Source of the DNA: Candidatus Bathyarchaeota archaeon
GTDB taxonomy: Archaea > Thermoproteota > Bathyarchaeia > Bathyarchaeales > Bathycorpusculaceae
Assembly: GCA_963828195.1 (NCBI GenBank)
Contig: CAWHDT010000001.1
Location: 352,001-416,000, forward strand
Direction of reading: 5' to 3'
DNA: 64,000 nucleotides
Positions 1 through 37,400 of this stretch are shown one piece after another. Within the stretch, counting starts at the first letter, position 1. Every line of letters begins with the position of its first letter. The notes beneath the pieces were generated by a model that was not told where the DNA came from, did no database searches, and saw nothing but the letters and a program-made list of their open reading frames with translations. The translations under genes and the position numbers were made by a program.

Positions 1-2
1 GG

Positions 3-2267
3 ACACGGCAAACATACAACAACTCTTTCAGCCAGGGCAGCGATGCTGAAATATGGGCTGGAGTTGTAGCACAAGGCGCTTCTAAGAACATTACCATCAC
101 ATTTTTTGATACAGAAAACAGGGGAGCAGAAGCAGATATTTGTGAATATTCAGGAATAGCAACAAGCAATTTCTTAGACGCAACAGCTACTGCTCAAGGC
201 GGGCCAGTAAATCAAAGCGACACGGGAACTATCGAAACTACAAGGTCTGCAAATGAATTATGGATAGGGGCAGTAGAGATGGCAAACTATGGTCAAACTA
301 CTCCAGCTAAGAACTCCTTTACTTTATTTGATGGTAGTCAATTTCAGGAAGGAAGTTTAGCTTACCTTCAATATTTTGCAAACTCTGCTGGTCCAGCTGA
401 CTCTGGAGCCATCGCGGGTGGCTCAGATTATTATGTCGGCTGCATCGCTGCATTCTTTGAGCAGACGGGTACTATTGTATCCTGCGCTCCCAATCCCGCA
501 CTCGCCAACTCTGCAGTAACTTGCACAGCCATAGTGTATGGTTCTAATCCAACAGGAACAATAACTTGGAGCACAAACAGCAGCACAGGCAGCTTCAATT
601 CCGATACAACCGAACTTGCCTCAGGATTTTCAACAACAACTTATACAGACACAAACGCAGGAACAGTAACAGTTACAGCATCTTACAGTGGAGACTCAAA
701 CAATCCCCCTTCAGTTATAAACACAACTTTAACAATTAATCCTTCATGGCAACTAATTATATCTTCAAACGGCGCTTCAGCTGGAACAGTAAGCTTGGCA
801 TCGGGAATATACAGTTTAGCTCCAATGCCTATAGCCGCATTTCCCAACTCAGGGTATCAATTTCTCTATTGGGTAACTGCAGGCGGCGCAGTTTTAGCAT
901 CCAACTCTTCAACTACAACTGTTGCCGGTTCAGGAAATGGCGCCATAGAAGCATTCTTTTCACAGCGTTATTTAATCAATTCACGCACATTGACCATAGC
1001 TGGTTCAAGCACAGTTCTTCCAATTGCCAACGAAGAAGCAGGTCTATGGCAACCATACTGGAATAACTTGGTATCTCTAAACCCAAATTGGGGAGCTTCG
1101 CAATGTACTTCGCCTGTTCTTCCAGTAGGTCTAGGCAGTGGCACAGCAATCCCTGAATTGTCCGCCGGCATAGCTGACATCGGAGAAATGTCAAGACCAC
1201 CGTACAACGCAACCAACGAGTGGCTCGCACCATCAATGAGTGGCATGCAGCTATGGGCAGTCGGCATCGATAGTATCGCGATCGTTTTGAGTGCTTACAT
1301 GAATTGGTTCCCAACTAATTTGACTACATTGCAAGTTGCAAACCTATTTGCATCAAATCCAACTACCGGAGCACAATATACTACTTGGAATGACTTTTTA
1401 ACTGCAAATGGTTTTTCGGCTGTTCACCCACAAGGAGATGCTGACATTAACCGTGCGGTTATGGATCCAACATCTGGAACTTTCGACTGTTTCAACAATT
1501 ACTTTGCCGTACCAAACGGTTTCCAATTTGAGCATAATGCCAACGGCACAGTTGATGGTTCACAGAACATGGCACCGTATACCTACTGCCAAGAAGACAT
1601 TAACATGTACAACACAATAGGGGGACCTAACTATATTGGTTTTATATCCTTAGGGTACTTCCAAGTGTACGGACATATGATCGGCCTTAACGTTTCATAC
1701 AACATCGCTAATCTTCCAAGCTCAACTATCTCTGTTGTTACACCAGCAGTCTGGGGGCCATACGTTGCACCAACACGGGACAACGTTATCTATGCACTTT
1801 CAGACTACAAAGACACTGCAGCTACCGGTCAATACTTTGCATGGACATATCTTTGGGAAGTTACTCCAAGCACTATTCCTACTTGGGGTCCACTGTTAGA
1901 AACAGGAGTCTGGATTGCATACATGAAGGAAGGAAACACCACCCAAGGCGGCACAAGCGACTTTGTCAACGACCAAGGATACATCGAGCTTGACCGTGAC
2001 GACATAGCTGGCGGAACAGTAATTGACGGTGCCCTGCAACCACACGGTATCGGTCAAGGTTTAGCTGCAACTCAGACTCAGTCTATTCCCGACGGCAAAG
2101 TTAACTTCCAAGACTTAACATACTTCGTCTCCGCATACATCGCATACTACGACCGAGGACTATACAATCCATATGCAGACATGAATGCTGACGGCAAAAT
2201 CAACTTCAACGACCTCAAACTCTTCGTATCAGAATACATAACATACTACACAACATACGTACCTTAA
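3..2267 (+). CDS. Secreted multidomain protein, 5'-truncated by the window edge: extracellular beta-domain, Ig-like (Big_3-type) domain, InlB-B/Listeria-Bacteroides-like repeat, PstS-like domain, C-terminal dockerin
   Basis: The frame is open from position 3 (TRQTYNNSF...AEIWAG...ADICEYSG...NELWIGAVE runs into the ATG at 279). PstS motifs GSSTV, GSGTA, MSR, DPTSGTF. Dockerin pair DGKVNFQDL / DMNADGKINFNDL. Confidence 0.85.
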   Translation, partial: TRQTYNNSFSQGSDAEIWAGVVAQGASKNITITFFDTENRGAEADICEYSGIATSNFLDATATAQGGPVNQSDTGTIETTRSANELWIGAVEMANYGQTTPAKNSFTLFDGSQFQEGSLAYLQYFANSAGPADSGAIAGGSDYYVGCIAAFFEQTGTIVSCAPNPALANSAVTCTAIVYGSNPTGTITWSTNSSTGSFNSDTTELASGFSTTTYTDTNAGTVTVTASYSGDSNNPPSVINTTLTINPSWQLIISSNGASAGTVSLASGIYSLAPMPIAAFPNSGYQFLYWVTAGGAVLASNSSTTTVAGSGNGAIEAFFSQRYLINSRTLTIAGSSTVLPIANEEAGLWQPYWNNLVSLNPNWGASQCTSPVLPVGLGSGTAIPELSAGIADIGEMSRPPYNATNEWLAPSMSGMQLWAVGIDSIAIVLSAYMNWFPTNLTTLQVANLFASNPTTGAQYTTWNDFLTANGFSAVHPQGDADINRAVMDPTSGTFDCFNNYFAVPNGFQFEHNANGTVDGSQNMAPYTYCQEDINMYNTIGGPNYIGFISLGYFQVYGHMIGLNVSYNIANLPSSTISVVTPAVWGPYVAPTRDNVIYALSDYKDTAATGQYFAWTYLWEVTPSTIPTWGPLLETGVWIAYMKEGNTTQGGTSDFVNDQGYIELDRDDIAGGTVIDGALQPHGIGQGLAATQTQSIPDGKVNFQDLTYFVSAYIAYYDRGLYNPYADMNADGKINFNDLKLFVSEYITYYTTYVP

Positions 2268-7831: not shown

Positions 7832-9661
7832 TTACTCTTCATTGCTTAAATAGGTCTGCAGTTTTTCAATTTCTTGGCTCAGCATACCGAAATAGTTTTT
7901 GAGTGTTTCTTGGCGTTCTTCAATATGTCTGTTGAATTCTATTAGCAGTCGGTCAAACTGTTCCTTTTCCAGTTTAAGCGCTGTACTTAATGCTTGGATT
8001 ATTTTTTCGTTGTCTGCGATTCGGTTTCTGTAAGCTATAATTGCCTGTAACGTTGGTTCTTGAGGTAGATCGCCTGCCAAATTAGGTTTAGCAATAAGAT
8101 CTGATGTGTCTTCGATATCAATTAATTTCGTCTTTGCATTTTCCATTTCTTCACGAACCGATCCGAAGTAGTTTTCAAGTGTTCTCTCTCTCTCATCCAC
8201 CAGTTTATTTAGTTCTATCAGGTCTTGGGCAAGTTGCTCTCTCTTAGACTTAAGCGCGGTTTTTATAGCGTGGATTCTTTTCGCGGCACTTGAAACGCGG
8301 TTTAAATGAGCCAAAGTTTCATCAGCTGTCGGCTCCTGAGCTGAGGCAGGTTCTAAATCGGGTTTACCTACTTCTATAGTGGCTGCGAATTTGGATTGAG
8401 GTTCCATTATTTCTTTTAGGTTTGTTTTCGACATAATTGTCGCTTCCATTACTTTTTCTTGGGCTATTTTTGGAGTTGGGGCATTTAATTGCAGCGCTGG
8501 TTGTTGAGTGGTTTCTTGAGGTACCGTTGACGAAATAAGCACTGGCGTTGCTGACTGACCATTTTCTGGAGTGGATGTTTCTGGGTTAAGTGTTGAGGCT
8601 GTTGAAGATTGAGTGGTGGGTGTTTCATCGGTATTTGTAGAGTGATTTCTTCTCAAGAACAACGTGAGAATTGTGAATGTAAAGATTCCTGTTGCTATTA
8701 GGAGCCATGAGAAGAGGCTTACGGTATTTTCCACACTGTTAGGCGTTGGGGTAGGTCCAGATGTTGGCGTTGAAGAAGACGAAGGCGTGGGTGTCGATGA
8801 GGAAGTGGGTGTAGGAGTGGGATTGGTAGTTCCATCACTACTGGCAATTGTGAAAGTTGCGGTTTGGTTTTCTGCCATTGGTATGTTTATGCCGGCATAG
8901 GTTCCTGAGTTTATTGCTACGCTGATTTCGGCTTGGCCTGCGGTTGCGTTGTCGGGAATTTGGAGGATGGTTGATAACTGAGTTTGATTGGAGTTTGCTA
9001 TTTGGCTGTTTTGAATTTCTGTTTGGTTAATTATTTGACCCGTAGAATCTTGCAAGCTGAAAGTAACGTTTGCTGTTTGGGCTTGTCCTGGATTGTTTAT
9101 TGTTGCGTTAATTGAAACAAAGTCGCTGGGGGAAAAGACGGTATCGTTTTGGCCTTGTGAATTTGCGAGGTTGATGGCAGTAGTTTCAAGGTCCCATTGA
9201 GCTGTAAAGTTTAGACTTTTCTGAATAATGCCGTTGGTTGTTTGTATGGTTGCTATGGCTTGCCAAGTGCCAACCAGTAAGCTTTCATTTTCGCTTGCAA
9301 TTGGAAGACGGAATGAAAAACCTGCTTCCCCAGTGGTGTTTGTTGTTTCTATTCTGGTGATGGCAGTTTGGGAATTAGAATTTTGGGGGCCAGTTACGTT
9401 AAAGTAAACTAAGATGTCCGGTTGGGATGCATTGCCGTAAGTTACCGTTGCTAGGAGTTGAATTTGGTCGAAGGGTGCAAAGGTTGTGGTTACGTTGTTT
9501 TTGTTATTTTCTGCGGTAAGGCTCATTGCCCATTGGTTGTTTGATGTGTTATTTTGAGCGTGGGCCACGTTTAATGTTTGAGTTATTGCAAGTGAAAGAA
9601 TTAAAATTAGGAGAACGTTTAAAATCCGGTAGCACGCCTTTGAATTCTTCTGTCTTCTCAT
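7832..9661 (-). CDS. Single-pass membrane protein: extracellular two-domain module shared with the cohesin proteins, P/T linker, TM, cytoplasmic tandem coiled coils
   Basis: Signal peptide; FAPFDQIQL...FSFRLP...GTW...IPDNATAGQA module; TM WLLIATGIFTFTILTLFL; two ~70-aa repeats PTxx...LENYFG/LKNYFG. Starts 10 bp after pstA. Confidence 0.85.
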   Translation of the reverse strand: MRRQKNSKACYRILNVLLILILSLAITQTLNVAHAQNNTSNNQWAMSLTAENNKNNVTTTFAPFDQIQLLATVTYGNASQPDILVYFNVTGPQNSNSQTAITRIETTNTTGEAGFSFRLPIASENESLLVGTWQAIATIQTTNGIIQKSLNFTAQWDLETTAINLANSQGQNDTVFSPSDFVSINATINNPGQAQTANVTFSLQDSTGQIINQTEIQNSQIANSNQTQLSTILQIPDNATAGQAEISVAINSGTYAGINIPMAENQTATFTIASSDGTTNPTPTPTSSSTPTPSSSSTPTSGPTPTPNSVENTVSLFSWLLIATGIFTFTILTLFLRRNHSTNTDETPTTQSSTASTLNPETSTPENGQSATPVLISSTVPQETTQQPALQLNAPTPKIAQEKVMEATIMSKTNLKEIMEPQSKFAATIEVGKPDLEPASAQEPTADETLAHLNRVSSAAKRIHAIKTALKSKREQLAQDLIELNKLVDERERTLENYFGSVREEMENAKTKLIDIEDTSDLIAKPNLAGDLPQEPTLQAIIAYRNRIADNEKIIQALSTALKLEKEQFDRLLIEFNRHIEERQETLKNYFGMLSQEIEKLQTYLSNEE

Positions 9662-9671
9662 CTTTTTACAC

Positions 9672-11081
9672 TTATTGCCCCGTGATTTTCTTAGTTAAAT
9701 AGTTTCTTGCAATTAACGCAACAATGCAGATTGCTAAATATATCAAAACAAGATAGAATGCAGCCGCGCATACTACACCGTATTGCAAAAAAGCGGCGTT
9801 CGTATTAGGAGGCCCGGCGCCAAAGATCATTAAACTTGGTGCCTGCCAAATGAATACAGGCAAGTTTGGAATTTGCGTATGTAAACCAAACAGTTGGCTT
9901 AATGGTGGCAAAATCGTGGCTTTTCCGTTATCACCTATTACTCCCGCTTGGCTAACGTTCCCTACTGGGGTCCAGCTGGCGGTTAATGCTACAACTATTG
10001 TTTCTCCGATAGCTGATCCGAAGCCCAACAAAATTCCAGTTATTATTCCAGGTAACGCAGCAAAAAGTACTGCGTGTCGTGTCGTCTGCCATTTTGTTGC
10101 TCCAAGTGCAAAGGAGGCTTCTCGATAAGAGCCTGGTACGGATCGAATTGATTCTTCCGCTATTCGAATGTTCCATGGTAGAATCATGAATGCCAACGAT
10201 ATTGATCCTCCTATCAAAGTAAATCCCCAATGTAGAAATATGACAAAAACTGCCGCTCCTACTAAACCAATCACAACTGATGGAACTCCAGCCAGAGTTT
10301 CGACAAAATATCGGATAGTGATCGTAAATTTATTTTGACTTGCGTATTCTGAAAGGTATATAGCGGCTCCTAAACCTAGTGGTATAGCTATAAATTCACA
10401 AAAACCCGCAAGAAGTAAGGAACCTATTGCATACGGCAGTAATCCCCCAATGGAACCTTTGTTTACGCCTTCGATTACTTTAGTGGTCCAGGTAAATCCC
10501 CAATTTGAACTTGTGAAAAATGTCCAAGAAAGATAAGGTGATGCTCTCACTGCTAAGTAGGTGATCATACCTATCAAGATGCCTGCACAAATTAATCCCG
10601 ATAACCTTAAACCGAATTTTGCCAAGTTTTCTGTAACTATTGGCAGGTCTTTTGATTTAACTGAGGTATTTCTTCTTTTGTTGATTTCAATTGCAGCTGC
10701 TACAGCGGATAAAACAGTAATAATTAGGGCAAATTCGATATTTAAATTTCCTGAGACTGCCAATAATAGCGCTGTCACGCTGGACAATATTGACAATTTC
10801 CATCCATACGAATGCCCTTCCAAAAGAAGGTAACCTGTGGCAAATAAAATTAATGCTGGCCCCATTATCAGCAGCGAGTATGTTGTGTCAGCAACTAATC
10901 TATCAATAGTTGTTTGACCGAAGCCCTCTATTTGGATAGAATTAATAAGGTGAATTGCACCGGGCAAAGCCACAGCTACTCCTGCAGCAAATAGCAGGGC
11001 ACCTGCTACAAGGTTTTCCTTTTTCCTTTTCTTTAAATATCCCCATAGTTTCGTTGTTTCTTTTTTTAAGTTGTAATTCAT
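9672..11081 (-). CDS. pstA: Phosphate ABC transporter permease PstA with an extra N-terminal membrane domain
   Basis: AAIYLSEYA, LAGVPSVVIGL, LPWNIRIAEESIRSVP..YREASFALGATKWQT, AIGET. Confidence 0.93.
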   Translation of the reverse strand: MNYNLKKETTKLWGYLKKRKKENLVAGALLFAAGVAVALPGAIHLINSIQIEGFGQTTIDRLVADTTYSLLIMGPALILFATGYLLLEGHSYGWKLSILSSVTALLLAVSGNLNIEFALIITVLSAVAAAIEINKRRNTSVKSKDLPIVTENLAKFGLRLSGLICAGILIGMITYLAVRASPYLSWTFFTSSNWGFTWTTKVIEGVNKGSIGGLLPYAIGSLLLAGFCEFIAIPLGLGAAIYLSEYASQNKFTITIRYFVETLAGVPSVVIGLVGAAVFVIFLHWGFTLIGGSISLAFMILPWNIRIAEESIRSVPGSYREASFALGATKWQTTRHAVLFAALPGIITGILLGFGSAIGETIVVALTASWTPVGNVSQAGVIGDNGKATILPPLSQLFGLHTQIPNLPVFIWQAPSLMIFGAGPPNTNAAFLQYGVVCAAAFYLVLIYLAICIVALIARNYLTKKITGQ

Positions 11082-11106: not shown

Positions 11107-11973
11107 CTATCCTTTTGTTTTGTTTCTGCTTGCTGTGAGAGTTCTTATTACCAAATTGGTAAGTGCACACATGATGAAGAGAATAATTGCGCCCCCGAAA
11201 ACTAGACTGTAAATCGAGCTTCCGGGTTCGAAAGTGTCTTGTGTAGCTCTCGTCGCGATCCATGCGGTGAGGGAGTTGGTTTGGACAAATGGACTGAGGT
11301 TAATTGACGGTGGAGTAATTTGGCCGATTACCCATATTACGGCCATTGTTTCTCCTATGGCATTTGCGAAGGCTAGAACAATTGACGTGATTATTCCAGA
11401 CGATGCGCTTGACATTAGGACTCGAGTTGTCGTCTGCCATTTTGTTGCTCCCATTCCTAGAGATGCTTCTCTTAAATCTCCGGGTACTGCTCTTAAAGAA
11501 TCTTCTGAAACGCTTGTAATTAGTGGTAACGACATTATTCCAAGAACTATCCAGCCAACTAAAGTGCATTTTTCCGCATTCACGATTCCGAAGACACTTA
11601 AGTTAGCACATAAAATGATGAAACCTAAAAAACCGATGATGACTGATGGAAATCCGTTTAAGACTTCTAGGGTTGGTTTTATGATGTTTCTTATTCTTTT
11701 ATCAGCAAACTCCGCCAAGTATATTGCGCAGGGAATTCCGATAGCTACTCCTAATATTATGCCGCCAACGGCCAGGTATAACGTATCAAACATGTAAGGA
11801 ACCATCGGGTATATCGGGGAGCTGTTAAATCCATTAGCGATAAACTCGAATATTGTTGAGTACCCGTTAATTATTAAAAAAAACACTATGAAGAAAACTA
11901 TGCCGATTGAAGAGACAGCGCAAGAAAGCAAAGCTGCTTTGATCAAGTTTTCTTTAAGAAGCTTTTTATTCAT
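11107..11973 (-). CDS. pstC: Phosphate ABC transporter permease PstC
   Basis: AIYLAEFA, GFPSVIIGF, SEDSLRAVP..LREASLGMGATKWQT, AIGETMAV. Confidence 0.93.
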   Translation of the reverse strand: MNKKLLKENLIKAALLSCAVSSIGIVFFIVFFLIINGYSTIFEFIANGFNSSPIYPMVPYMFDTLYLAVGGIILGVAIGIPCAIYLAEFADKRIRNIIKPTLEVLNGFPSVIIGFLGFIILCANLSVFGIVNAEKCTLVGWIVLGIMSLPLITSVSEDSLRAVPGDLREASLGMGATKWQTTTRVLMSSASSGIITSIVLAFANAIGETMAVIWVIGQITPPSINLSPFVQTNSLTAWIATRATQDTFEPGSSIYSLVFGGAIILFIMCALTNLVIRTLTASRNKTKG

Positions 11974-12211
11974 GCCTCCCCGTTTTCTCCTTTCTTCTGT
12001 GCGTCTAAAAAGTTGGAAACTGCTAAGATAATGCTTTTCTATTTATAATTCATAGTCTAATTAGAAACACCTGTGCTCACAGGTTATCGCTTCCCAGATC
12101 AATAGACTAAATTGTTTACCATAAATTACATCGACAAGCTAGATATTCACTCGACACAAAGGTATTGTCTGAACGAGTAATCGTTCAAAGATCTAGAAAG
12201 GAGAATAAAAA
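11974..12211. promoter_or_regulatory. Divergent pstC/pstS promoter region with ~9-10-bp periodic ATnGAnTA-like repeats
   Basis: ATAGACTAA-ATTGTTTACC-ATAAATTAC-ATCGACAAGCTAGATA at 12102-12145; a similar arrangement on the minus strand toward pstC; AAGGAG SD before pstS. Confidence 0.5.
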
Positions 12212-13684
12212 ATGAATAGTAAACAAAAAACAATAGTATCTATGTTGATATTAGCATTGCTAGCACTTACGACAGCTGCAACTTTTGTAAATGCATCGGG
12301 CTTACCTTTCCAAAACAACCAGTTAGTCAATTCAAACACATTGACCATTTATGGCTCAAGCACAGTTCTTCCAATTGCTAACGAAGAAGCAGGCCAATGG
12401 CAAACATACTGGAACAACTTGGTCACTCTAAACCCCAGCTGGGGCGCAGATTCATGCACCACACCAGTTACTCCCGTAGGTCAAGGCAGCGGAACAGCAA
12501 TCCCCGCATTGACAGCCGGAACAGCTGATATTGGTGAAATGTCTAGACCACCAAACAATCAAACCACTGAATGGCTCTCAACAACGGTGCCCAGCCTGCA
12601 GATTTGGGGCGTCGGAATCGACAGCGTCGCAATCGTTTTGAGTCCTGACATGACCTGGTTCGTAACAGAACTCGCCACATTAGAAGGCACATCTAATCCA
12701 GGCCTAAACACTGCAGAAGTCGCTGCACTATTCGGAAATGGCGTGGTTGGCAGCCCTAACATTGGTGGACTACCGACAACAACATTCAACACTTGGAATG
12801 ACTTCTTCAACTACTACTTCCCAACCAACTACACAGCAGTTCCACAAGGAAGCAACACCATTAACCGGGCAGTGAGAGATCCAACTTCAGGAACATTCGA
12901 CTGCTTCAACAACTACTTTGCAGTACCAAACGGCTACCAATTTGAACACAAAACCAACAGTATCGTTGACGCTTCTCAGAACATGGCAGCATACACTTAC
13001 TGCGAAGCAAACATTGACATCTACAACACAGTACACGCTGGAACTAACTACATCGGCTTCATATCCTTAGGCTACCTCCAAGTCTACGGCGGCATGATTG
13101 GCATATCCGTCTCATACAACACTGCGAGCCTTCCGAGCTCAACTATAGCGGTCGTTACTCCAGCAGTATGGAGTACATACGTTACGCCAACACGAGACAA
13201 CGTAATCTACGCACTCTCAAACTACAAAGACACTGCAGCCACAGGTCAATACTTCGCATGGAGATACCTCTGGGAAGTAACACCTAGCACAATCCCATCC
13301 ACTGGTCCACTCTTAGAAACAGGAGTCTGGATTGCATACATGATGGAGCCAGGCACAACTGGAAACAGCACTAACCCAAGCAACTTCGTTAACGACCAAG
13401 CCTACATTAGTCTTGACCGTGACGACATGGCCGGCACACCAACACTCAACGGCGCATTAGGCGTACAAACTTCAAGTCTACAACCAGGTCAGACCACAAC
13501 TATCCCAGACGGCAAAGTTAACTTCCACGACTTAACCTACTTCGTCTCTGCTTACATCGCATACTACAACCAAGGAACATACAACCCATACGCAGACATG
13601 AACGCTGACGGCAAAATCAACTTCAACGACCTCAAACTCTTCGTATCAACATACATAGCATACTTTACAACATACGTACCATAA
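12212..13684 (+). CDS. pstS: Phosphate-binding protein PstS with C-terminal dockerin
   Basis: Class I signal peptide (VNA|S) with no lipobox Cys; GSSTV, GSGTA, DIGEMSR, RDPTSGTF; dockerin DGKVNFHDL / DMNADGKINFNDL; divergent from pstCA. Confidence 0.92.
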   Translation: MNSKQKTIVSMLILALLALTTAATFVNASGLPFQNNQLVNSNTLTIYGSSTVLPIANEEAGQWQTYWNNLVTLNPSWGADSCTTPVTPVGQGSGTAIPALTAGTADIGEMSRPPNNQTTEWLSTTVPSLQIWGVGIDSVAIVLSPDMTWFVTELATLEGTSNPGLNTAEVAALFGNGVVGSPNIGGLPTTTFNTWNDFFNYYFPTNYTAVPQGSNTINRAVRDPTSGTFDCFNNYFAVPNGYQFEHKTNSIVDASQNMAAYTYCEANIDIYNTVHAGTNYIGFISLGYLQVYGGMIGISVSYNTASLPSSTIAVVTPAVWSTYVTPTRDNVIYALSNYKDTAATGQYFAWRYLWEVTPSTIPSTGPLLETGVWIAYMMEPGTTGNSTNPSNFVNDQAYISLDRDDMAGTPTLNGALGVQTSSLQPGQTTTIPDGKVNFHDLTYFVSAYIAYYNQGTYNPYADMNADGKINFNDLKLFVSTYIAYFTTYVP

Positions 13685-13710
13685 AAAAACCCCATCTTTT
13701 CTTTTTTTTT
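13685..13710 (+). terminator. Oligo-T archaeal terminator-like tract between pstS and the next gene
   Basis: CCCCATCTTTTCTTTTTTTTT; similar tracts follow the genes ending at 15937, 47092 and 57346. Confidence 0.5.
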
Positions 13711-13738: not shown

Positions 13739-15937
13739 ATGAAAACCAAAATATTTAAAACCAAATCAGTAATAGCTTTGGCACTGGTCCTTTTTATGGT
13801 CGTGCCAATGCTGTTTGCGGCTTTACCAGGTGTTAAAGCCCAAACCACGCCAGTGCTCAGCGTTGTTCCTGATGGCCAACCAGGCGCCACCATGACAACA
13901 ATGATAGCTGGCTTGGCGGTCGGCTCAACATTCACGGTAGACATCCGCGTCGACGACATAGGCGACATTAGCCAAGGCATAAACGGCTTAAGCTACAGCA
14001 TAACCTACAACGCAGCAGTCCTCCAACTAACTGGACACGCAACAAAGAACGCATCATTCTGGGGTGCCAACGTAGGTGACGTCACATCTATCGTCACTAC
14101 AAGCAGCGGCGTCTTCACAGAATCCGCAATCATCGTTCCATCCGGAGCACCAGACGAATCAACAAACACACCAGGCGTTGCAACAACCTTAACCTTCAAA
14201 GTACTAACCACAGGACAAAGCGACATTAACTTCCAGCCAAGCGACGTCGGAGTAGCATACTTAACCTACCCAGATGCAGTGGGAAATAGCCACGACGTAA
14301 CTGCCAACGTAGAGAACGCAATATACAACCAATTAACCACCTCAATCAGCGCATATCAACATGGCACAGCCAACTCAGTCATCCAATTCGCTCCAAACAC
14401 TGACCCAATAGGCAGCACCTTCACAGTAGACGTCAACATCACCAACCAATTAGCAGAGCCCATATGGGGATACAATGTCGGCGTCAACTGGAACCCAGCA
14501 GTACTCCAACTAGAAACAGTGACTGAAGGAACATACCTCAACAGCGCACCAGGCCTATATGATGGCAGCTCAACACTCTTCATTGCAGGATCAATAGACA
14601 ACGTCCACGGAGACATCCCACAAGGCGTCAGCGACGTATACCTGACAAACGAGACAACCACATCACTGTCAGGCACACTGTTCAACTTAACCTTCGAAGT
14701 AATAAACTACGCCAACAGCAGCATAAACTTAACCCCAGGCAATCCAACATTGATCGACAACCTTGGAAACAGCCAATCAGTCACCCTAAACAGCGCACAA
14801 TATGTCACCCTAGCACCACCAGCACCTACCTCACCAGTTGCAGTTATATCTCCTCCAGCATCAACAATGTACCTCGCAGGAGCACCACTATCCTTAACAG
14901 GAATAAACTCTCAACCAGGAGTTGACTACATTCCAAACGCACAATCGCCAATCTTCCCAATCACAACATACACTTGGACCGTACCAGCAGGTATCACCAT
15001 TACTGGCCAAGGCACAGCCACAATAAACTTCACAGGACCAACCCCAGCAGCTGATATCACAATCGGATTAACCGTCTCAACCGCAACAAACCCATCAGAC
15101 CTATCATACGTTAACGTAAGCAACGAAACAACAATCATACTATCACCAGCATTCACCAACCCAACCACTGCAGGCGCACAAATAGACGTTTACGTAGTAG
15201 CACCCTTCCCATACGCAGGATTCGCTCCCATTAGCCAAGGAATCTTCAACAACACAAACCCAGCCGCTTCCTTAGTAGACACCTACGCACCACAACAACT
15301 CATGAGCCTAGAAGCATACGTCGGATATAACGGAGCAACAGTAGCAGACAAACTGGTAACATTCTACGTAACAGCCTACAACAACCCAAGTGATGTAATC
15401 GCAACATTCGTAGGATACACCAATGACAACGGAATCATAGACACATCCTATCGCCTACCAAACTATAACAGCTCTGTCATGCCCTTCGGAGAATACACAG
15501 TAACCGCAACCGTTGATGTCGCACAAGTACAAGTAACCGACTGCTTTAGCTTCGAATACAACTATATCCTGAACTTCGCATCAGTAACAACACCCGCAGA
15601 AACAGCCCGAGGCCAAGCAGCAACCTCACAAATAACCATAGCTAACAACGCATTCACAACCCAACCATACTACCTAACCTACACCGTCACAGACAACAAC
15701 AACGTACCAATCCTTTCAGGTTCAGCCAATGGAACAGCTACAATTGTTGCAACTCCAATTAACGCCCAAGGAATTAACACAGCATTTACAATCACCTTGA
15801 ACCTTCCATCATACGCTTTCGTTGGAACAGCAACCCTACACGTAGACCTCTTCAACGCCAACCCAGCAACTCAAAACGGCCTACCATACTGCCCAGAAAA
15901 CGACCAAACATTCACCATCGCAATCCCAGCAGCATAA
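13739..15937 (+). CDS. Secreted scaffoldin-like protein: 2 cohesins + PKD-like domain + conserved two-domain C-terminal module
   Basis: VGSTFTVDIRV...YNAAVLQL...GVATTLTFKV and IGSTFTVDVNI...WNPAVLQL..VTEGTYL...GTLFNLTFEV; ends LPSYAFVGTATLHV...LPYCPE. Confidence 0.85.
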   Translation: MKTKIFKTKSVIALALVLFMVVPMLFAALPGVKAQTTPVLSVVPDGQPGATMTTMIAGLAVGSTFTVDIRVDDIGDISQGINGLSYSITYNAAVLQLTGHATKNASFWGANVGDVTSIVTTSSGVFTESAIIVPSGAPDESTNTPGVATTLTFKVLTTGQSDINFQPSDVGVAYLTYPDAVGNSHDVTANVENAIYNQLTTSISAYQHGTANSVIQFAPNTDPIGSTFTVDVNITNQLAEPIWGYNVGVNWNPAVLQLETVTEGTYLNSAPGLYDGSSTLFIAGSIDNVHGDIPQGVSDVYLTNETTTSLSGTLFNLTFEVINYANSSINLTPGNPTLIDNLGNSQSVTLNSAQYVTLAPPAPTSPVAVISPPASTMYLAGAPLSLTGINSQPGVDYIPNAQSPIFPITTYTWTVPAGITITGQGTATINFTGPTPAADITIGLTVSTATNPSDLSYVNVSNETTIILSPAFTNPTTAGAQIDVYVVAPFPYAGFAPISQGIFNNTNPAASLVDTYAPQQLMSLEAYVGYNGATVADKLVTFYVTAYNNPSDVIATFVGYTNDNGIIDTSYRLPNYNSSVMPFGEYTVTATVDVAQVQVTDCFSFEYNYILNFASVTTPAETARGQAATSQITIANNAFTTQPYYLTYTVTDNNNVPILSGSANGTATIVATPINAQGINTAFTITLNLPSYAFVGTATLHVDLFNANPATQNGLPYCPENDQTFTIAIPAA

Positions 15938-16617: not shown

Positions 16618-18813
16618 TTGGGGTTCAGAAACTTTTTTTGTTTTGTTCTCATTCTTATTTTAGCTGTGTCCTTTTTTTCTTTATCGATGAGTTTTACCCA
16701 TGCAGTCAGCAGCGGACCTGTACTCAGTGTAGTGCTTTCAGGAACTATTAATGATTCGACTCTTCCTACTGTGGCAGTTGGTTCCACCTTTAGCGTAGAT
16801 GTGCGAATAGACAACACAGGCAGTGTAAATCCTGGCATTAACTCAATCAGTTTCACATTAACTTGGAATCCTGCGGTGTTGCAGTGCATTAACGCAGCGG
16901 ATGGAACCTTCCTGCCAAACCAATCCAATTCAGGAGATCGTTCACCCGATAACAACGTTGGAAATGTCACATATGGCCTCAGTGTTCTCGATGCAAGCAA
17001 CCCAATGGATTGCGAGCCAGGGGGAAGTACCGGAGTGGTTGCCACTGTTACATTCCAAGTGTTGGAATCGGCTCAAAGCGGGCTCAACATTGTACCCAGC
17101 AGCCAAAACGTCGTATACCTTACATACCCTAACGGCAGCGGAAATAGCTTAAATGTGACCAACACACAAATTGTTGACGCCCTATTCAACCAAATGCTTA
17201 CCTCAATTAACGTCTACCAACTTAACACAAGCAATTCGACAATCCAATTTCCCTATGGAACTGATCCGATATACAACACCTTCACTGTAGATGTAAACAT
17301 CACTAATGCTGCGGCAGAACCCATATGGGCTTGGAGCATTGGCGTCTACTGGAACCCACAAGTGCTCCAATTGGACACAATAACTCAAGGAAACTACTTG
17401 ACAAATGTTGGCGGTCTCTATGACGGTAGCCCTACATTGTTCATTGCTGGCCCGATAGACAACACCGCAGGTCCTTTCCCAGTTGACAACGTTCATGGCA
17501 CAATCGATCAAGGAATAAGTGATGTGTACCTTTCGAACACTACAACCACCAAGCTGTCCGGTAGCCTATGCATCTTGACTTTCCAAGTTATCAGCTACGG
17601 CAATAGCTACATTAACATAACAACGGGCAATCCAACTCTAATTGACAACTTGGGCAATTCACAACCAGTTGTTTTAAACGAGGGACAGTACGTAGGTGTG
17701 ACTCCGCCACCACCAAAAGCACCAACTGCAATAATCCACAATGAAGCGGCAACTACAAGTTTTCTACCAGGAGCAACAATCACATTGGACGCGTTTAGTT
17801 CAACGCCTGGATCGGATGTTACTCCAAACCCTAATACACCGAATTTTCCAATATTATCTTACACATGGGCTGTCAGCGGAATATCTGGGTTTACTATACC
17901 CTCAAGCGGCAGCTCAATTACTTTTCTAGCACCGAACCCGGCAAGTTCATTCCTCGTCACCCTGACCGTTTCCACAGCACCTAACCCCGCAGACCCAAAC
18001 TATGTGAGCACAGACAGCGCCTCTATTGAGTTCGACCCTGCATATCAACAGCTGACAAGTGCTGGTGCTCAAATTGATCTGTACATAGTTAATCCCAACC
18101 CGACAAACACGTCGTACCCAATTAAATTTCCAACCAGCCAAGGAATCTACAACAACACTTCTCCGACCGGTTCTTATGTTGATACATTTTCTCCAGAGGA
18201 AGAGTTGGATCTCCAAACGTTCATCGTGTACAACGGTGCGGCAGTGCCAAATACGCTAGTGACCTTTGTTGTAACCCCTGAGAATAATCCGTCAGATGTC
18301 CTAGCAAACTTTGTAGCATATTCTAACGATAATGGGTATGCAACAGCAACATACCGTCTTCCGACGTATAACGACGCCGATATGCCCTTCGGTAATTATA
18401 CAGTCACTGCTTTTGTTGACATAGCTCAGGTGAGAGTAAGTGACTGCTTTACCTTCCAATTTAACTACGTGCTCAATATATACTCAGTAACGCAACCACC
18501 GGAAACTGCAAGAGGACAACAAACGAGCTTCACAGCAACCATACAATGCAATTCTTTCATAGAACAAAATTACTTTTTAAGCTGGACTTTAACGGACAGC
18601 AACAACGTGCCAATCATTTCAGGTGAGACTTCCGGAACAGCTTTTCCAGGCAGCGGAAACATCCAATACGTAACATTGACTATTCCAACATACTCCTACA
18701 ATGGAACAGCAACCCTGCACGTAAACTTGTTCAATGGTAACCCCGAGTTTCTGTCTCAAGATGCTCTACCATACTGTCCGGAAAGCGATCAGTCCTTAAC
18801 AATATTGCCCTAA
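16618..18813 (+). CDS. Paralogous scaffoldin-like protein: 2 cohesins + PKD-like domain + C-terminal module
   Basis: Collinear with 13739..15937 (GLYDGS.TLFIAG, GNPTLIDNLGNSQ, MPFG.YTVTA.VD.AQV, LPYCPE); TTG start after GAGGGGG. Confidence 0.85.
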   Translation: MGFRNFFCFVLILILAVSFFSLSMSFTHAVSSGPVLSVVLSGTINDSTLPTVAVGSTFSVDVRIDNTGSVNPGINSISFTLTWNPAVLQCINAADGTFLPNQSNSGDRSPDNNVGNVTYGLSVLDASNPMDCEPGGSTGVVATVTFQVLESAQSGLNIVPSSQNVVYLTYPNGSGNSLNVTNTQIVDALFNQMLTSINVYQLNTSNSTIQFPYGTDPIYNTFTVDVNITNAAAEPIWAWSIGVYWNPQVLQLDTITQGNYLTNVGGLYDGSPTLFIAGPIDNTAGPFPVDNVHGTIDQGISDVYLSNTTTTKLSGSLCILTFQVISYGNSYINITTGNPTLIDNLGNSQPVVLNEGQYVGVTPPPPKAPTAIIHNEAATTSFLPGATITLDAFSSTPGSDVTPNPNTPNFPILSYTWAVSGISGFTIPSSGSSITFLAPNPASSFLVTLTVSTAPNPADPNYVSTDSASIEFDPAYQQLTSAGAQIDLYIVNPNPTNTSYPIKFPTSQGIYNNTSPTGSYVDTFSPEEELDLQTFIVYNGAAVPNTLVTFVVTPENNPSDVLANFVAYSNDNGYATATYRLPTYNDADMPFGNYTVTAFVDIAQVRVSDCFTFQFNYVLNIYSVTQPPETARGQQTSFTATIQCNSFIEQNYFLSWTLTDSNNVPIISGETSGTAFPGSGNIQYVTLTIPTYSYNGTATLHVNLFNGNPEFLSQDALPYCPESDQSLTILP

Positions 18814-19130: not shown

Positions 19131-20135
19131 ATGAAAAAATTAATAGTATCATTTCTTTGTTGCTTACTGATAGTTTCCGCTTCAATAGCTTTGGTTAGTG
19201 CAACCTCGCAATTGACTTTGACAGCCACTTGTGATAGTGCTTTATATGATCGAAATACCACTTTAACTTTTAGTGGAAGTATGGTGTATAACAATTACGA
19301 ATATCTACAATATCCAAGCGACGGCTTAGTCGGTATACAAATCGTGGACCCGACCGGATATACAACAGTAATAAGAACCCTGAGAACGGGGACTTCAATG
19401 CCTAACAACATAACCGCTTACATAGACTCAGCATATTTATGCAATGTTGCTGGCAACCCGCAGACAAGTGTTCTTCTGCCAACCGCAGACAACGGAGAAG
19501 TCCCATATTACTATATTCAAGTTCAGAATAACGCTGCTATAGGAGTCCCAATGTTGCTAACAATGAACATATTTGACAGCAACGGAATTCCAATCACTTC
19601 AACGTATCAATGGGTAACGCCGGGCGCCTATTCCACATCCTTCGTCCAAACAAACTTCAATATCGACTCAGATGCGCACTACGGAATAGCAACCGCCTAC
19701 GTCAACGTCTACTCTAATTGGCCCAGCCTAGGAGGAATCCCGTATGGTTTGGAACAATCATTCCAGTTCACCATAACCGGCGGTCCAGCATTTACAGGAA
19801 ACCCCAGCATGACTACAAGCGGAAATGGCCTCTACTCCTTAAACTATACAGTGCCTAAAATTGCAAACTTGGGCACCTACACAGTGTACACCACAGCCAA
19901 CTACCTGGGCGCTCCCGCTTCAGCAAGCACCACATTCCAAGTTCAACAATTGGGCGATTTAAACGGCGACGGCAAAGTAAACTTTACTGATCTAACAATT
20001 TTTGTTGCCGACTACATAGCCTACTATAATAGTGGCGTATATAATCCGCTTATAGACCTTAATCACGACGGAAAAGTAAACTTTGCCGACTTACAAGCCT
20101 TCGTACATGATTACATAGTGTATTGGAGTTCATAA
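19131..20135 (+). CDS. Secreted protein with part of the shared module + C-terminal dockerin
   Basis: IDSDAHYGIATAYVNVY...GIPYGLE; GDLNGDGKVNFTDL / DLNHDGKVNFADL. Confidence 0.85.
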   Translation: MKKLIVSFLCCLLIVSASIALVSATSQLTLTATCDSALYDRNTTLTFSGSMVYNNYEYLQYPSDGLVGIQIVDPTGYTTVIRTLRTGTSMPNNITAYIDSAYLCNVAGNPQTSVLLPTADNGEVPYYYIQVQNNAAIGVPMLLTMNIFDSNGIPITSTYQWVTPGAYSTSFVQTNFNIDSDAHYGIATAYVNVYSNWPSLGGIPYGLEQSFQFTITGGPAFTGNPSMTTSGNGLYSLNYTVPKIANLGTYTVYTTANYLGAPASASTTFQVQQLGDLNGDGKVNFTDLTIFVADYIAYYNSGVYNPLIDLNHDGKVNFADLQAFVHDYIVYWSS

Positions 20136-20140: not shown

Positions 20141-21487
20141 ATGAAAAAAACAGCAGCATGTCTATTAGTACTCTTAGCCCTCGCTTTCTTAATTTTTCCA
20201 TTAACCAATCTGGCTAAAGCTCAAAACGGGCCAACAGTGACCCTTACACCTTCACAAGTTACTGTAAGCCAAGTAAACCAAATTTTCGCAATTAGCATCA
20301 CAATATCTAATGTTCAAAACCTATTTTCGTGGGAAGCAGATGTGTATTGGGACCCGACAGTTCTTAACCTGACAAGTACTCCTGCGGAAGGCAACTTTCT
20401 GTCAGATTCAGGAGCGTATAACACCGAATTCATTCCAATAAGTATAAACACTGTACATTATCCGCCGCCTTCGAACATACCCAACGATGCAGGCGAGGAC
20501 ATTTCAGGCATAATTCTTTCTCAAGGTGGCGTCAATGGCACTGGAACTTTAGCTACACTTCAATTCCAAGTAGTAGCCGAAAGTGCATCAACCACAATAT
20601 ACCTCTATATCGTCGGCCTCAGTGCATACTCTCTAGCTAGTAATGGTGCAGGGGTCGACATTACTCCAACATCGAATTCCGCAACCGCAACCGTCTCATT
20701 TGCCTCCACAGGAGCACCATCAGCAAATGCTGGCCCAGACCAAACAGTTTCAGAAGGCTCAACCGTAACCTTTGACGGATCAAAATCGATTTCCACAGGC
20801 TCCAACCCAACTTACAAATGGACCTTCAACGACACCACACCACAAACACTTACCGGCGTGACTCAAACCTACACATTTAACACTCCAGGAATATACCTTG
20901 TCACCTTAACTCTCACAGACTCATACGGTACCAGCACCTCCACAGTAACTATAACGGTGCAAAGCAACTCCCCGCCAGTCGCAGAAATCACAATTGAGGG
21001 ACTTACTCAGGGACAAAATGCCGCAACGGGACAACCAATTACCTTCGACGGGTCAGGAAGCTACGAAGCGAACAACGGAACCATAGCAAAGTACATCTGG
21101 GCAGCTTCTTCAGGAGCCGCAGACGACTTAGTCGATACGACACAAATAGGCTCAGATGTCACAATAACTCACACCTTTTCAGACCCGGGAGAGTACAACA
21201 TAACTTTAACGGTTTTCGATGCGACAAATCTTACCGCCACAAACTCAACCACACTTACAGTCGTGAAAGGCACAAGCACTAGTCCTTCTCCCACTGAAAC
21301 CTCAACTCCAAACACAGGCTCAAGTCCTTCTCCTGCAACCTCAAGTTCAAACACAAGCTCCCCTACTCCAGTCCCAGACACCACCATACAATCATCTGGT
21401 GTGCCCCCAGACATTTTAGCTATCTTGATAATAGTTACAATTGCTGTTTTGGCAGGCTCAACCTTCTGGCTACGAAAAAGAACTTGA
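20141..21487 (+). CDS. Membrane-anchored cohesin + 2 PKD domains
   Basis: ISNVQNLFSW...WDPTVLNL...EGNFL...GTLATLQF; ANAGPDQTV..G.TVTFDGS; S/T/P linker; C-terminal TM + RKRT. Confidence 0.87.
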   Translation: MKKTAACLLVLLALAFLIFPLTNLAKAQNGPTVTLTPSQVTVSQVNQIFAISITISNVQNLFSWEADVYWDPTVLNLTSTPAEGNFLSDSGAYNTEFIPISINTVHYPPPSNIPNDAGEDISGIILSQGGVNGTGTLATLQFQVVAESASTTIYLYIVGLSAYSLASNGAGVDITPTSNSATATVSFASTGAPSANAGPDQTVSEGSTVTFDGSKSISTGSNPTYKWTFNDTTPQTLTGVTQTYTFNTPGIYLVTLTLTDSYGTSTSTVTITVQSNSPPVAEITIEGLTQGQNAATGQPITFDGSGSYEANNGTIAKYIWAASSGAADDLVDTTQIGSDVTITHTFSDPGEYNITLTVFDATNLTATNSTTLTVVKGTSTSPSPTETSTPNTGSSPSPATSSSNTSSPTPVPDTTIQSSGVPPDILAILIIVTIAVLAGSTFWLRKRT

Positions 21488-21570: not shown

Positions 21571-21606
21571 CCATGGCTGACAGTAGTGGGCGGGAGAAAA
21601 ATTTAC

Positions 21607-22383
21607 ATGAATAAACCGCTGATAGTAGTGTTTTTAATCGCAATCACATTGACAACCATATTTGCATTAAGCGTTGCAAACGCCGCAGCTACAACGCCAA
21701 CTGTCGGCGTTGATTCAGCTACTCAGCAGTTTCCTTCCGCGCAAGTCGGAGATTTAATTCAAGTAAATATTACCGTAAGCAACGTCCAAGACCTTTGGTC
21801 ATGGTCCATGGTTAATCTTACATATAACCCTAGAATCTTAAATATAACTCGAGCAACTGAAGGTCCTTTTCTTCAACGAGCAGGACAAACAGAATTCGTT
21901 TGGCCCTATAATCCTGCAGGCGTCAGCATGGGCTTGATTCCAGAAATAGATAACATACTGCTTGAACAAGCGTCTGAAAGCGGTAGTGGCGTGCTTGTAA
22001 CATTAACCTTCCAAGTAATATCTTTAGGCACTTCTCCACTTTCCTTCGGTCAAATGGTAATGTATAACTCCAGCCAAATTGCCAACATTGAAAACCCCAT
22101 AGCAATGAACGTCAACGCAGTCAACGCAAACATAGTAGTTGGAAGCTCATCCAATCCAACAGCTAGCGCTTCATCGACTAATCCGACTCAAACCCCTTCA
22201 AACTTGGCACCGGAATTCCCCCTGACTGTCATGCTTGCATTGTTGATTATTGCTGTAACCGCGACGACTCTGTTTATTGTTCGAAACAATAGACACGGAA
22301 AAAAAACTAGCAACTTTACCTTCTTTGTCAACACAGCAAACTTTTCAGCTATCATGTCGGCACTTCGAAACCTTTCCATTTAA
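21607..22383 (+). CDS. Single cohesin with PEF-CTERM-like sorting signal
   Basis: Probable ATG at 21607; cohesin VNITVSNVQDLWSW...YNPRIL...EGPFL...GVLVTLTFQV; APEFP-TM-RNNRHGKK. Confidence 0.85.
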   Translation: MNKPLIVVFLIAITLTTIFALSVANAAATTPTVGVDSATQQFPSAQVGDLIQVNITVSNVQDLWSWSMVNLTYNPRILNITRATEGPFLQRAGQTEFVWPYNPAGVSMGLIPEIDNILLEQASESGSGVLVTLTFQVISLGTSPLSFGQMVMYNSSQIANIENPIAMNVNAVNANIVVGSSSNPTASASSTNPTQTPSNLAPEFPLTVMLALLIIAVTATTLFIVRNNRHGKKTSNFTFFVNTANFSAIMSALRNLSI

Positions 22384-22596
22384 CAGTTTAGTGTTTATCT
22401 TTAATTCAATGCCTTTGCTCTGTTGATTAAGCGATTATCCGCAAAAATGGGGGACATTATCTCGATCTACACAAATTACAAGTTAAGGTTAAAGAAATCT
22501 TACCTGCTTTACATAAACGGAAGGGAGAGTTTTATGCGTTCTACAAGAAGTGGCACATTTCAATGTGGCTTAGTTCAAAGTGATAAAGCGAGGGCA

Positions 22597-23439
22597 CTGA
22601 AGCGTAAAACCTCACTTTGTTCACTCTTAGTTATCATTATTGCAATATCGGTCTTTTCCATGGAATTCCACCTTGTTAGCGCTGACAACACCTCCACCCC
22701 GGTGCTTAGTGTTGTTCCAACAGGCGCACCTGGTGCCACTGTTAATTCAACCCAGATACCTGCTGTTGCTGTTGGTTCAACGTTTACCGTAGATATTCGC
22801 GTCAACAATATTGGAAATGTTACCCCTGGTATCGACGGTTTAAGCTACTCTCTAACCTACGACCCATCAGTACTTAACGTGACGGCCTTCCAAACAAAAC
22901 AAACATCATTTTGGGGTTACGACAGCAGCGACATTACATCAATCGTCACCCAAGTGCCAGCCGGCACCTTTACGGAGAGCGCTATTATCCTTCCTTCTGG
23001 TGCTCCTGATGAAGCCACAAATACGCCTGGGGTTGCGACACAAGTAACTTTTACGGTGCTTGCGGCTGGTCAGAGCAATATTACTTTTGCGCCAAGTGAT
23101 GTGGGAATTGCTTTTTTAGATTATCCAGACAGCGCAGGCGTTGGCCACGATATAGTCGCCAGCACAGTAGACGCAATCTACGGGGTTTTGCCTTCTCCAA
23201 CACAGACTCTATCCCCTTCTCCCACACTGATTCTAACTCCTTCACCTAAACCGACTTTAACCACTACTCAATCAGAAACAGCCTCAACTACAGTTTCACC
23301 TTCGTCTACCTTGCCGAGAGAAGTTTTATCAAACTCAACACCGGAATTTCCTGTAACTCTTATACTGGCTTTGCTGATCATTACCGTAACATTATCAACC
23401 CTGAAATTTTCCAAAAATAGAAAAGCTAGAAAGAAATAA
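22597..23439 (+). CDS. Single cohesin with PEF-CTERM-like sorting signal
   Basis: Start placed by homology: CTG AAG CGT AAA matches GTG/ATG AAA CAT AAA in the paralogs; ATG at 22534 is an alternative. Cohesin, S/P/T linker, TPEFP-TM-RKARKK. Confidence 0.82.
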   Translation: MKRKTSLCSLLVIIIAISVFSMEFHLVSADNTSTPVLSVVPTGAPGATVNSTQIPAVAVGSTFTVDIRVNNIGNVTPGIDGLSYSLTYDPSVLNVTAFQTKQTSFWGYDSSDITSIVTQVPAGTFTESAIILPSGAPDEATNTPGVATQVTFTVLAAGQSNITFAPSDVGIAFLDYPDSAGVGHDIVASTVDAIYGVLPSPTQTLSPSPTLILTPSPKPTLTTTQSETASTTVSPSSTLPREVLSNSTPEFPVTLILALLIITVTLSTLKFSKNRKARKK

Positions 23440-36836: not shown

Positions 36837-37400
36837 TTAGCTAGATGATAATTTAACGTTGATTACTTTCTCAGGGACTGTTTGTGAGTCAAACTTTAAT
36901 AAAATAAAATAAAACAAAATTCCATTTAAGATTAACCCTGTAATTGACGCGGGTGAACCCATTATTCCGGAAAGGAGAAATTGAATAAATTGGAAGCAAG
37001 CGGCTAAGGCAAATATCATCAATGCGGCTAAGCGGGCAAAGTTGTGCCTGACCCAAAGCCCTAAGCCTACGAGAAGAAGGTCTAATCCAATAAACCATGA
37101 AATTAATCCAATAATTGAAACACTTGTATTAGTAAGACTGCCCATGCCAAAGGGAACCCCGGGTACCCAACTTATGGCTGATGCAACTGAGTTGATTGCT
37201 GAGCTTGTTTGTTGAACCTGATTTGCATCAGTTATCATTAAGTAAAGTCCACCGACGATTAAAACCACCCCAAATGTGATAACTAATTTGGTAACCAGAT
37301 CCGTGATAAAGCTGAAATTTGATAAATATTTTCTAACTTTATTTATTGAATCAGTAATTGGAAAAAAATAATTGTTTAATTCTTTCTGCATTTCTTTCAC
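36837..37400 (-). CDS. Integral membrane protein (about 4 TM), translationally coupled to phoU
   Basis: GTGA overlap with the phoU stop; hydrophobic helices; GLGLWVRHNFAR. Confidence 0.8.
   Translation of the reverse strand: MKEMQKELNNYFFPITDSINKVRKYLSNFSFITDLVTKLVITFGVVLIVGGLYLMITDANQVQQTSSAINSVASAISWVPGVPFGMGSLTNTSVSIIGLISWFIGLDLLLVGLGLWVRHNFARLAALMIFALAACFQFIQFLLSGIMGSPASITGLILNGILFYFILLKFDSQTVPEKVINVKLSSS

Follow-up and report, generated by a model that had tools for sequence, protein, structure and literature searches.

Comparison with described systems

Dockerin-bearing substrate-binding proteins have been described, from domain annotation only, in anaerobic methanotrophic (ANME) archaea (Chadwick et al. 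2022, PLoS Biol, PMC9012536). The part of that text that treats them names NikA/OppA and TroA types and not PstS, and suggests that scaffoldin-like proteins could localise such binding proteins. The entries of its S4 Data include an ANME-2a protein of 356 amino acids that matches the NCBIfam PstS model TIGR02136 with 252.9 bits (residues 2–279) and carries a type I dockerin (residues 284–339, E 2e-05). The function of cohesin and dockerin modules outside cellulosomes is stated to be unknown in the relevant passages of Timmers et al. (2017, PMC5244752), and likewise in those of Chadwick et al. (2022). Here we describe a gene, called pstS-dockerin below, at 12212..13684 on the plus strand of a 64,000-nucleotide stretch of a Candidatus Bathyarchaeota archaeon genome (GCA_963828195.1, contig CAWHDT010000001.1, positions 352,001 to 416,000). 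This whole stretch is referred to as the window, and coordinates are those of the window unless a contig or locus is named. The gene encodes a predicted secreted protein of 490 amino acids in which a divergent PstS core is followed by a tail that, by homology, is a dockerin, and it stands beside genes for cohesin proteins. We propose that cohesin–dockerin pairing tethers this putative phosphate receptor at the cell surface, an explanation that, judged from sequence, is probably correct though far from secure.

Here, as in the ANME genomes so far as the cited parts of that paper describe them, an archaeal ATP-binding cassette (ABC) binding protein ends in a C-terminal dockerin and the same genome encodes multi-cohesin and dockerin–cohesin proteins. 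The ANME PstS-dockerin is a canonical member of its family, whereas the Bathyarchaeia protein scores 43.9 bits on TIGR02136 (cut-off 206.6, with residues 11–147 only aligned), is therefore a divergent family member and belongs to an isolated clade; thus, the fusion probably arose twice. The Bathyarchaeia architecture is fixed across a clade and lies within a conserved pst–cohesin cluster, which the relevant ANME text does not report. The concept of a dockerin-tailed receptor is consequently not new, having already been noted in other archaea, and the novelty implied by the sequence-only reading that drew attention to this gene was overstated. What is new is that a whole clade of one PstS type carries an obligatory tail, that the pst–cohesin–dockerin cluster is tight and conserved, that the genome's entire cohesin–dockerin set is placed inside its phosphate locus, and that a helix-anchored PstS of the same genome provides an internal contrast. 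Full-text literature searches, judged by titles and the starts of abstracts, returned no account of a dockerin-tailed PstS architecture, and the records so judged for dockerin, cohesin and Bathyarchaeota included none that describes this Bathyarchaeia cluster.

The locus resembles those of clostridial cellulosomes in that dockerin cargo, multi-cohesin scaffolds, adaptors with both cohesin and dockerin, and candidate cell-anchored cohesins are encoded together. It differs from them in that no glycoside hydrolase, other carbohydrate-active enzyme or carbohydrate-binding module was found on the cluster proteins scanned, in that anchoring would be by a C-terminal transmembrane (TM) helix and not by SLH domains or sortase, and in the short linker region and degenerate first loop of the PstS dockerin. 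With canonical PstS proteins (TIGR02136/PF12849, including two on contig C5 of the same genome) the protein shares its fold, its phosphate-binding motifs and the partnership with PstC, PstA and PstB; it is ~140 residues longer than is typical, falls far under the NCBIfam cut-off, ends in a dockerin, and has a signal-peptide-like N-terminus where the canonical one is anchor-like. In the bindosome of Sulfolobus, the binding proteins that assemble at the surface carry type IV pilin-like signal peptides. Retention of binding proteins at an archaeal surface beyond a simple lipid or helix anchor would be common to both systems. The class III signal motif (G or A at position −1 before the hydrophobic stretch) is absent from the N-terminus of PstS-dockerin, which has K-Q-K-T there instead, and retention would be by a protein–protein plug and not by a pilin-like assembly.

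The PstS core

Residues 29–396 (12296–13399) form the binding-protein core. Pfam PBP_like_2 (PF12849) matches residues 43–262 with 29.9 bits (cut-off 27), and when the PDB was searched with a profile of 63 homologues all nine matches were phosphate-binding proteins. The AlphaFold2 (AF2) model of the protein (predicted local distance difference test, pLDDT, 90.3; predicted template-modelling score, pTM, 0.87) has a predicted two-lobed type II periplasmic binding-protein fold that is nearest to solved PstS structures. Foldseek agrees with this; among the PDB matches listed, ranks 1–49 are without exception phosphate-binding proteins of the PstS, PhoX or DING kinds, the best being 4jwo (E 5.3e-13). 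Among the 63 homologues G48, S49, D106, S226 and G227 are invariant and S50, T51, G92-S93-G94, R222 and T228 nearly so, and R222 together with S-G-T (S226-G227-T228) aligns with the R and S-G-T of PDB 4pqj. The core of this open reading frame (ORF) is thus a divergent yet genuine PstS fold, and phosphate binding by it is predicted. Its genetic surroundings are those of a phosphate transporter: pstC and pstA lie divergently next to it, and 24 kb downstream the window has pstB and phoU.

The dockerin tail

The last ~58 residues (433–490, 13508–13681) constitute the dockerin tail. The isolated 72-residue tail matches the Pfam dockerin with 25.9 bits, and a six-frame scan of the genome finds the same feature at the end of pstS with 25.1 bits, both above the cut-off of 22.9. 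Four genes away, ORF 19131..20135 (plus strand), a conserved member of the cluster, encodes a secreted Ig/MG2-like protein whose dockerin passes Pfam with 30.4 bits, and the pstS tail is 64% identical to that dockerin over 55 amino acids (E 4e-20). The Pfam dockerin also matches 8 of 14 orthologous tails at E<=1. In a PDB profile search with the tail the best matches were cellulosomal dockerins, at weak E values of 0.0097–0.1, and in the ESM Atlas dockerin clusters ranked first at 0.83, which is under the level that the tool takes as more than a lead. The AF2 model of the tail has two helices (438–454 and 471–488), and the second calcium loop is canonical (D-x-N-x-D-G...D). By homology, then, the pstS tail is of the same dockerin type as the others in this genome.

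A small clade with an obligatory tail

A word-index search gave 106 homologues, and the collection examined comprised 162 sequences. A hidden Markov model (HMM) of the tail matches 124 of the 162, and the 38 that it misses are fragments of <340 amino acids, two truncated sequences and one unrelated protein. The tail is C-terminal in 112 of the 114 near-complete cases, so that the combination of a solute-binding protein with a dockerin, for which the sequence-only reading had suggested an architecture search, recurs throughout the clade. The other two (P0089, from L012:7514-10027, and P0109) continue into fused cohesins: a PstS-dockerin is followed by a linker and by one or two cohesins, with no intervening signal peptide. 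By their predicted architecture these are natural PstS–dockerin–cohesin fusions. The G-S-S-T loop and the R...S-G-T motif are altered in the PstS part of P0089, and that copy may no longer bind phosphate. A search for longer PstS-dockerin forms gave only P0109 and one Ig-extended form.

An exhaustive phmmer search with the core alone, run against 1.84 billion representatives, reaches no more than 70 proteins at E<=0.001, which makes this a small clade that stands apart from ordinary PstS. Tail-less relatives, which might show what anchor the dockerin replaced, were sought and none were found, the core search reaching this clade only; its sole full-length (>380 amino acids) match without a tail is an unrelated bacterial-type PstS.

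Conserved gene order

Gene order was compared in 19 loci on 17 distinct contigs, 15 of them labelled Bathyarchaeota/Bathyarchaeia and two with bacterial bin labels; PstS identity is 34–71%. The comparison was read from ORF maps, Pfam scans and HMMs built on window proteins, and several nanopore-derived loci are frameshifted. In the repeated order one strand carries a TM/coiled-coil protein, pstA and pstC, and the opposite strand carries pstS-dockerin, a two-cohesin protein of ~740 amino acids and an Ig-like dockerin protein of ~335, then a cohesin–PKD protein of ~440 with a C-terminal TM helix and a cohesin–TM protein of ~263. A two-cohesin relative is directly 3′ of pstS on 15 of the 17 contigs, and the cohesin–PKD–TM protein is likewise present on 15, the remaining two contigs ending too early to tell. 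The minimal locus (L009) consists of phoU, pstA, pstC, pstS-dockerin, one dockerin protein, one cohesin–PKD–TM protein and pstB only, with pstB and phoU 3 kb downstream of pstS-dockerin.

Cohesin proteins and candidate anchors

Directly after pstS-dockerin, starting 54 nucleotides beyond it, is a gene for a secreted two-cohesin protein (13739..15937, plus strand, 732 amino acids). Pfam finds cohesin 1 at ~13850–14329 and cohesin 2 at ~14336–14806, followed by PKD-like and Ig-like domains. The AF2 model (mean pLDDT 76.9) has a signal peptide, beta-sandwiches at residues ~38–197 and 200–356, a PKD-like domain and two more Ig-like domains, and Foldseek places the type II cohesin dyad 3l8q (A. cellulolyticus ScaA) at ranks 7–8 among multi-Ig proteins. 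The two genes that the sequence-only reading had put side by side, one ending in a dockerin and one with two cohesins 54 bp downstream, are therefore both as it described them.

Further cohesin and dockerin genes follow on the same strand. A paralogue of the two-cohesin protein (16618..18813, 50% identity to it) precedes the Ig/MG2-like dockerin protein, after which come four ORFs, each encoding a cohesin and a TM helix that lies at the C-terminal end or close to it. The first of these (20141..21487) is a candidate membrane anchor with a signal peptide, a cohesin, two PKD domains, an S/T/P stalk, a C-terminal TM helix and a basic tail; 13 aligned orthologues keep the signal peptide, cohesin, PKD domain(s), stalk, TM helix and basic tail. 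The other three are single-cohesin proteins, at 21586..22383 (TM helix near the C-terminus) and at 22423..23439 and 23969..24760 (each ending in a TM helix and a basic tail). Beyond them are cohesin proteins at 25055–26725 and 26835–28445, a cohesin protein ending in a dockerin at 28331–29728, and large secreted proteins ending in dockerins at 29942–34192 and 34484–36736. Sorting of the TM cohesins by a PEF-CTERM/archaeosortase route was considered and rejected: only one of the four, that at 21586..22383, matches TIGR03024, and with 14.7 bits it stays under the cut-off of 23. The genome has two Exosortase_EpsH-family matches.

Altogether nine of the ten dockerin matches and 12 of the 13 cohesin matches in the 2.83-Mb genome fall within C1:346.5–388.7 kb, a 42-kb cohesin–dockerin island that is bracketed by pstCA, phoU–pstB and polyphosphate genes. 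A second PstS-dockerin paralogue of 844 amino acids begins 267 nucleotides before the window, which holds its 3′ part (1..2267, plus strand). It has, in order, a signal peptide, Ig-like domains spanning 400 residues, a PstS core and a dockerin, is 71% identical to PstS-dockerin over residues 20–490, and has M at the position of R222. Nearby, ORF 2480–3541 (plus strand) encodes a secreted CARDB and BsuPI (protease-inhibitor-like) protein with an internal dockerin-like segment that scores 20.7 bits, below the cut-off; a relative of it at L008:8863-9936 adjoins a PstS-dockerin paralogue.

A canonical pstS-pstC-pstA-pstB-phoU operon is also present in the same genome, on contig C5. The PstS encoded there lacks a dockerin; at its N-terminus is a hydrophobic segment of 23 residues, and a T/P linker of ~70 residues comes after it. 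An orphan PstS, also on C5, is built along similar lines. Helix-type N-terminal anchoring is thus, to judge by these predicted features, the normal mode for PstS in the same cell.

Proposed tethering at the cell surface and its alternatives

In the arrangement we favour, PstS-dockerin would be the phosphate-binding receptor for a second Pst ABC importer, an accessory one, whose pstC and pstA genes lie divergently beside it and whose pstB and phoU close the island at its far end. It would be exported by Sec and lose its signal peptide after V-N-A28, and the mature protein would carry neither a lipid nor a helix anchor. The C-terminal dockerin would plug into a cohesin of the cluster-encoded proteins, for which the candidates are type I membrane proteins (cohesin, PKD, stalk, TM helix) and soluble two-cohesin proteins; the choice among these cohesins is likewise a prediction. 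PstS would thereby be kept near PstCA at the cell surface, possibly in several copies. If so, the system would offer a third way, besides lipid and helix anchors, to hold an ABC receptor on a cell without an outer membrane, and the number or identity of the receptors could be changed without altering the permease. It may also matter for the way in which Bathyarchaeia of soil and peat acquire phosphorus. The locus offers a concrete cargo with an assayable ligand (phosphate), 13 candidate cohesin sockets and a conserved gene order, and the helix-anchored PstS of the same genome provides an internal control, so that a bench test is simple to design.

Several observations weigh against this arrangement. 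In the Pfam scan of the whole protein Dockerin_1 (PF00404) scores 21.2 bits, under the cut-off of 22.9, and the TIGR02136 score given above is likewise under its cut-off. The first calcium loop of the tail is degenerate: its ligand positions 1 and 3, which should hold D and N, are occupied by T and I. None of the 114 tails of the family has a canonical first loop, 69 have a canonical second loop, and 45 have neither; for a large part of the family a dependence on calcium is therefore doubtful, and for the pstS tail itself it is uncertain. The family is also sparse, with a match in 3 of 301 sampled genomes of the class, the present one included. Cohesin binding by the pstS tail is itself a prediction. 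A complex model of the tail (residues 418–490) with both cohesins (residues 36–358) of the adjacent protein scored 0.02 against a mark of 0.32; it was made without controls and weighs neither way.

The proposal in the sequence-only reading that the dockerin retains the receptor at the surface stands in part. The tail is kept across the clade, synteny is conserved, and TM-anchored cohesins are encoded a few genes downstream, but the adjacent two-cohesin protein lacks an anchor of its own: a hydropathy scan finds no TM helix in it, and it has no dockerin, which also counts against the arrangement. A tether must therefore use other cohesin proteins or a further attachment, so the direct partners of PstS would be either the TM-anchored cohesins or else the two-cohesin protein, attached by means that are not visible. 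The 54-nucleotide spacer between pstS and the two-cohesin gene (13685–13738) contains a nine-T run, which makes co-transcription of the two uncertain, a further point on the negative side. This run could be a partial archaeal terminator that gives the two genes different expression levels.

The N-terminus (residues 1–28, 12212–12295) has the look of a cleavable signal peptide: two Lys and a brief hydrophobic core are followed by polar residues that end in V-N-A just before S29, in agreement with the −3/−1 rule. It is from this motif that cleavage after V-N-A28 is predicted. Among the 95 family N-termini listed a common plan recurs, in which basic residues come first, a brief hydrophobic core follows and the end is of small-x-Ala type; a crude cleavage rule places a site in 93 of them. 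A lipobox is lacking, the earliest Cys being residue 82, and the hydropathy scan yields the N-terminal segment 5–23 alone and so no C-terminal TM helix. What the sequence-only reading had claimed for both ends of the protein is thus borne out, save that cleavage itself is a prediction.

Were the N-terminal helix not cleaved, it would itself anchor PstS, as in the canonical PstS of this genome, and the dockerin would serve to recruit the anchorless two-cohesin protein and further dockerin cargo onto the transporter. The two-cohesin proteins, with neither TM helix nor dockerin, need some attachment, and their genes directly follow pstS on nearly all of the contigs compared; the two natural fusions join PstS-dockerin to cohesins; and the ~15 residues between the hydrophobic segment and the first strand are like those of the orphan PstS on C5. 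On the other side, the hydrophobic core has only ~12 strongly hydrophobic residues before the polar stretch to V-N-A, the small-x-Ala type ending recurs across the family despite sequence drift, and the 23-residue hydrophobic segment of canonical PstS has no such motif. In the 844-residue paralogue, moreover, the Ig-like domains separate the signal peptide from the PstS core. On balance we regard an uncleaved anchor as unlikely.

The segment that connects core and tail (residues 397–432, 13400–13507) bears on a different possibility. The dockerins of cellulosomal enzymes are carried on a floppy linker. Here Y398, G408, L416, Q427 and P432 are invariant and pLDDT is 86–92 for residues 391–430. 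With the connecting segment conserved and confidently modelled, the tail is probably held rigidly and not on such a linker, and the predicted dockerin could be an integral part of the receptor, which would count against a tether. In that case the tail would be a dockerin-derived structural or calcium-binding subdomain that has ceased to bind cohesins, and the gene neighbourhood would reflect co-regulation under phosphate limitation and no physical contact. The degenerate loops (the first in 114 of 114 tails, both in the 45 already mentioned) and the weak PDB profile matches of the tail point the same way. The identity of the tail to the bona fide dockerin encoded four genes away argues otherwise, as do several non-PstS dockerins of the genome, whose first loops are equally degenerate. 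Moreover, cohesin genes stay beside pstS across the whole 34–71% range of PstS identity, and the fusion proteins place the tail and cohesins in one chain. We therefore consider a purely structural tail quite improbable.

Least probable of all, and in our view very unlikely, is that PstS-dockerin is a phosphate-capturing scaffold cargo (a sponge or sensor) with import left to the canonical Pst elsewhere, as could be argued from the complete pstSCAB-phoU operon on C5, from the existence of two PstS-dockerin paralogues, one with long Ig-like extensions, and from the M at the R222 position in that paralogue, since pstA–pstC is divergently adjacent to pstS-dockerin here and on 15 of the 17 contigs, with no other binding-protein gene beside it, and pstB and phoU close the locus both here and in L009.

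Tethering of the receptor could also be one part of something larger. The whole cohesin–dockerin repertoire might form a phosphate-limitation surface organelle, in which a membrane-anchored multi-cohesin scaffold, encoded within the pst/polyphosphate locus, would display several copies of the two PstS paralogues and Ig-like dockerin proteins above the membrane and feed a dedicated PstCAB, whose PstA has a unique 150-residue N-terminal extension. This is a tentative extension of the tethering proposal and on present evidence a doubtful one; if true, it would give archaeal cohesin–dockerin modules their first defined physiological job.

The pstS leader

A perfect inverted repeat with 7-bp arms and a 4-nucleotide spacer lies at 12170..12187 (plus strand), ~25 nucleotides upstream of the pstS start codon and directly before the ribosome-binding site. 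It occurs once in the 2.83-Mb genome. Its 6-bp core is perfect in 9 of the 14 pstC–pstS intergenic regions compared, while the spacer letters vary, and counterparts are found in the intergenic regions of L002, L004, L006, L010, L011, L013 and L015. A strongly conserved block of ~45 nucleotides is also present further upstream. Rfam gives no match at E<=1 in the pstC–pstS intergenic region. The repeat could be an RNA hairpin or an operator. A regulatory motif shared by the pst and cohesin/dockerin promoters was looked for and rejected: the recurring C-T-A-A-A-T-A-G-like element, which precedes many genes, resembles an ordinary archaeal TATA region. Eleven sequencing runs are listed as sharing words with window positions 11900–16000; all are DNA metagenomes (soil, bog, sediment), none is RNA, and only one holds at least half of the words.

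Permease, regulator and polyphosphate genes

The pstC permease gene (11107..11973, minus strand), divergent from pstS, scores 192.3 bits on TIGR02138 (cut-off 196.45). The pstA permease gene (9672..11081, minus strand) matches TIGR00974 with 189.3 bits over residues 160–461. The window PstA has 469 amino acids, with ~150 extra N-terminal residues that contain three predicted helices; its orthologues in related loci have 425–471, and the canonical C5 operon has a protein of 303 in the place of PstA.

Next to pstA is a conserved cluster member of 609 amino acids (7832..9661, minus strand) with no family match. A signal peptide and a beta-rich ectodomain are followed by a P/T linker, and a single TM helix separates these from a cytoplasmic coiled coil. 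On 15 of 17 related contigs its gene comes immediately 3′ of pstA. Nothing useful came from searching Pfam, NCBIfam and PDB profiles with it, and a cohesin within it was sought and rejected, a profile–profile comparison with the cohesin–PKD–TM alignment having matched signal peptides only.

At the far end of the island are phoU, here fused to an AbrB/MazE-type DNA-binding domain (37397..38452, minus strand), and the pstB ATPase gene (38677..39429, plus strand; TIGR00972 388.7 bits, cut-off 343.2). Just upstream of the island, and upstream of the window, are three polyphosphate-related genes (G000:C1:338470-343840; L001 470-5840). They encode a protein of 779 amino acids with CHAD, calcineurin-like phosphoesterase and Ppx/GppA domain III regions, a polyphosphate kinase 1 of 706 amino acids, and a CYTH protein of 186 amino acids. 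The cohesin–dockerin island thus lies inside a phosphate/polyphosphate neighbourhood.

Other genes of the window

Two further ORFs of the window, both on the plus strand, are recorded here. That at 61227–61739 (170 amino acids) matches the emp24/gp25L/p24 (GOLD) family with 51.1 bits, a family best known from eukaryotic vesicle trafficking. That at 45896–47092 encodes an S-adenosylmethionine synthetase with three Pfam S-AdoMet_synt domains (N, M and C, 135–227 bits), which is unusual for an archaeon; we take the three-domain families to be the bacterial/eukaryotic MetK, archaea having a distinct type.

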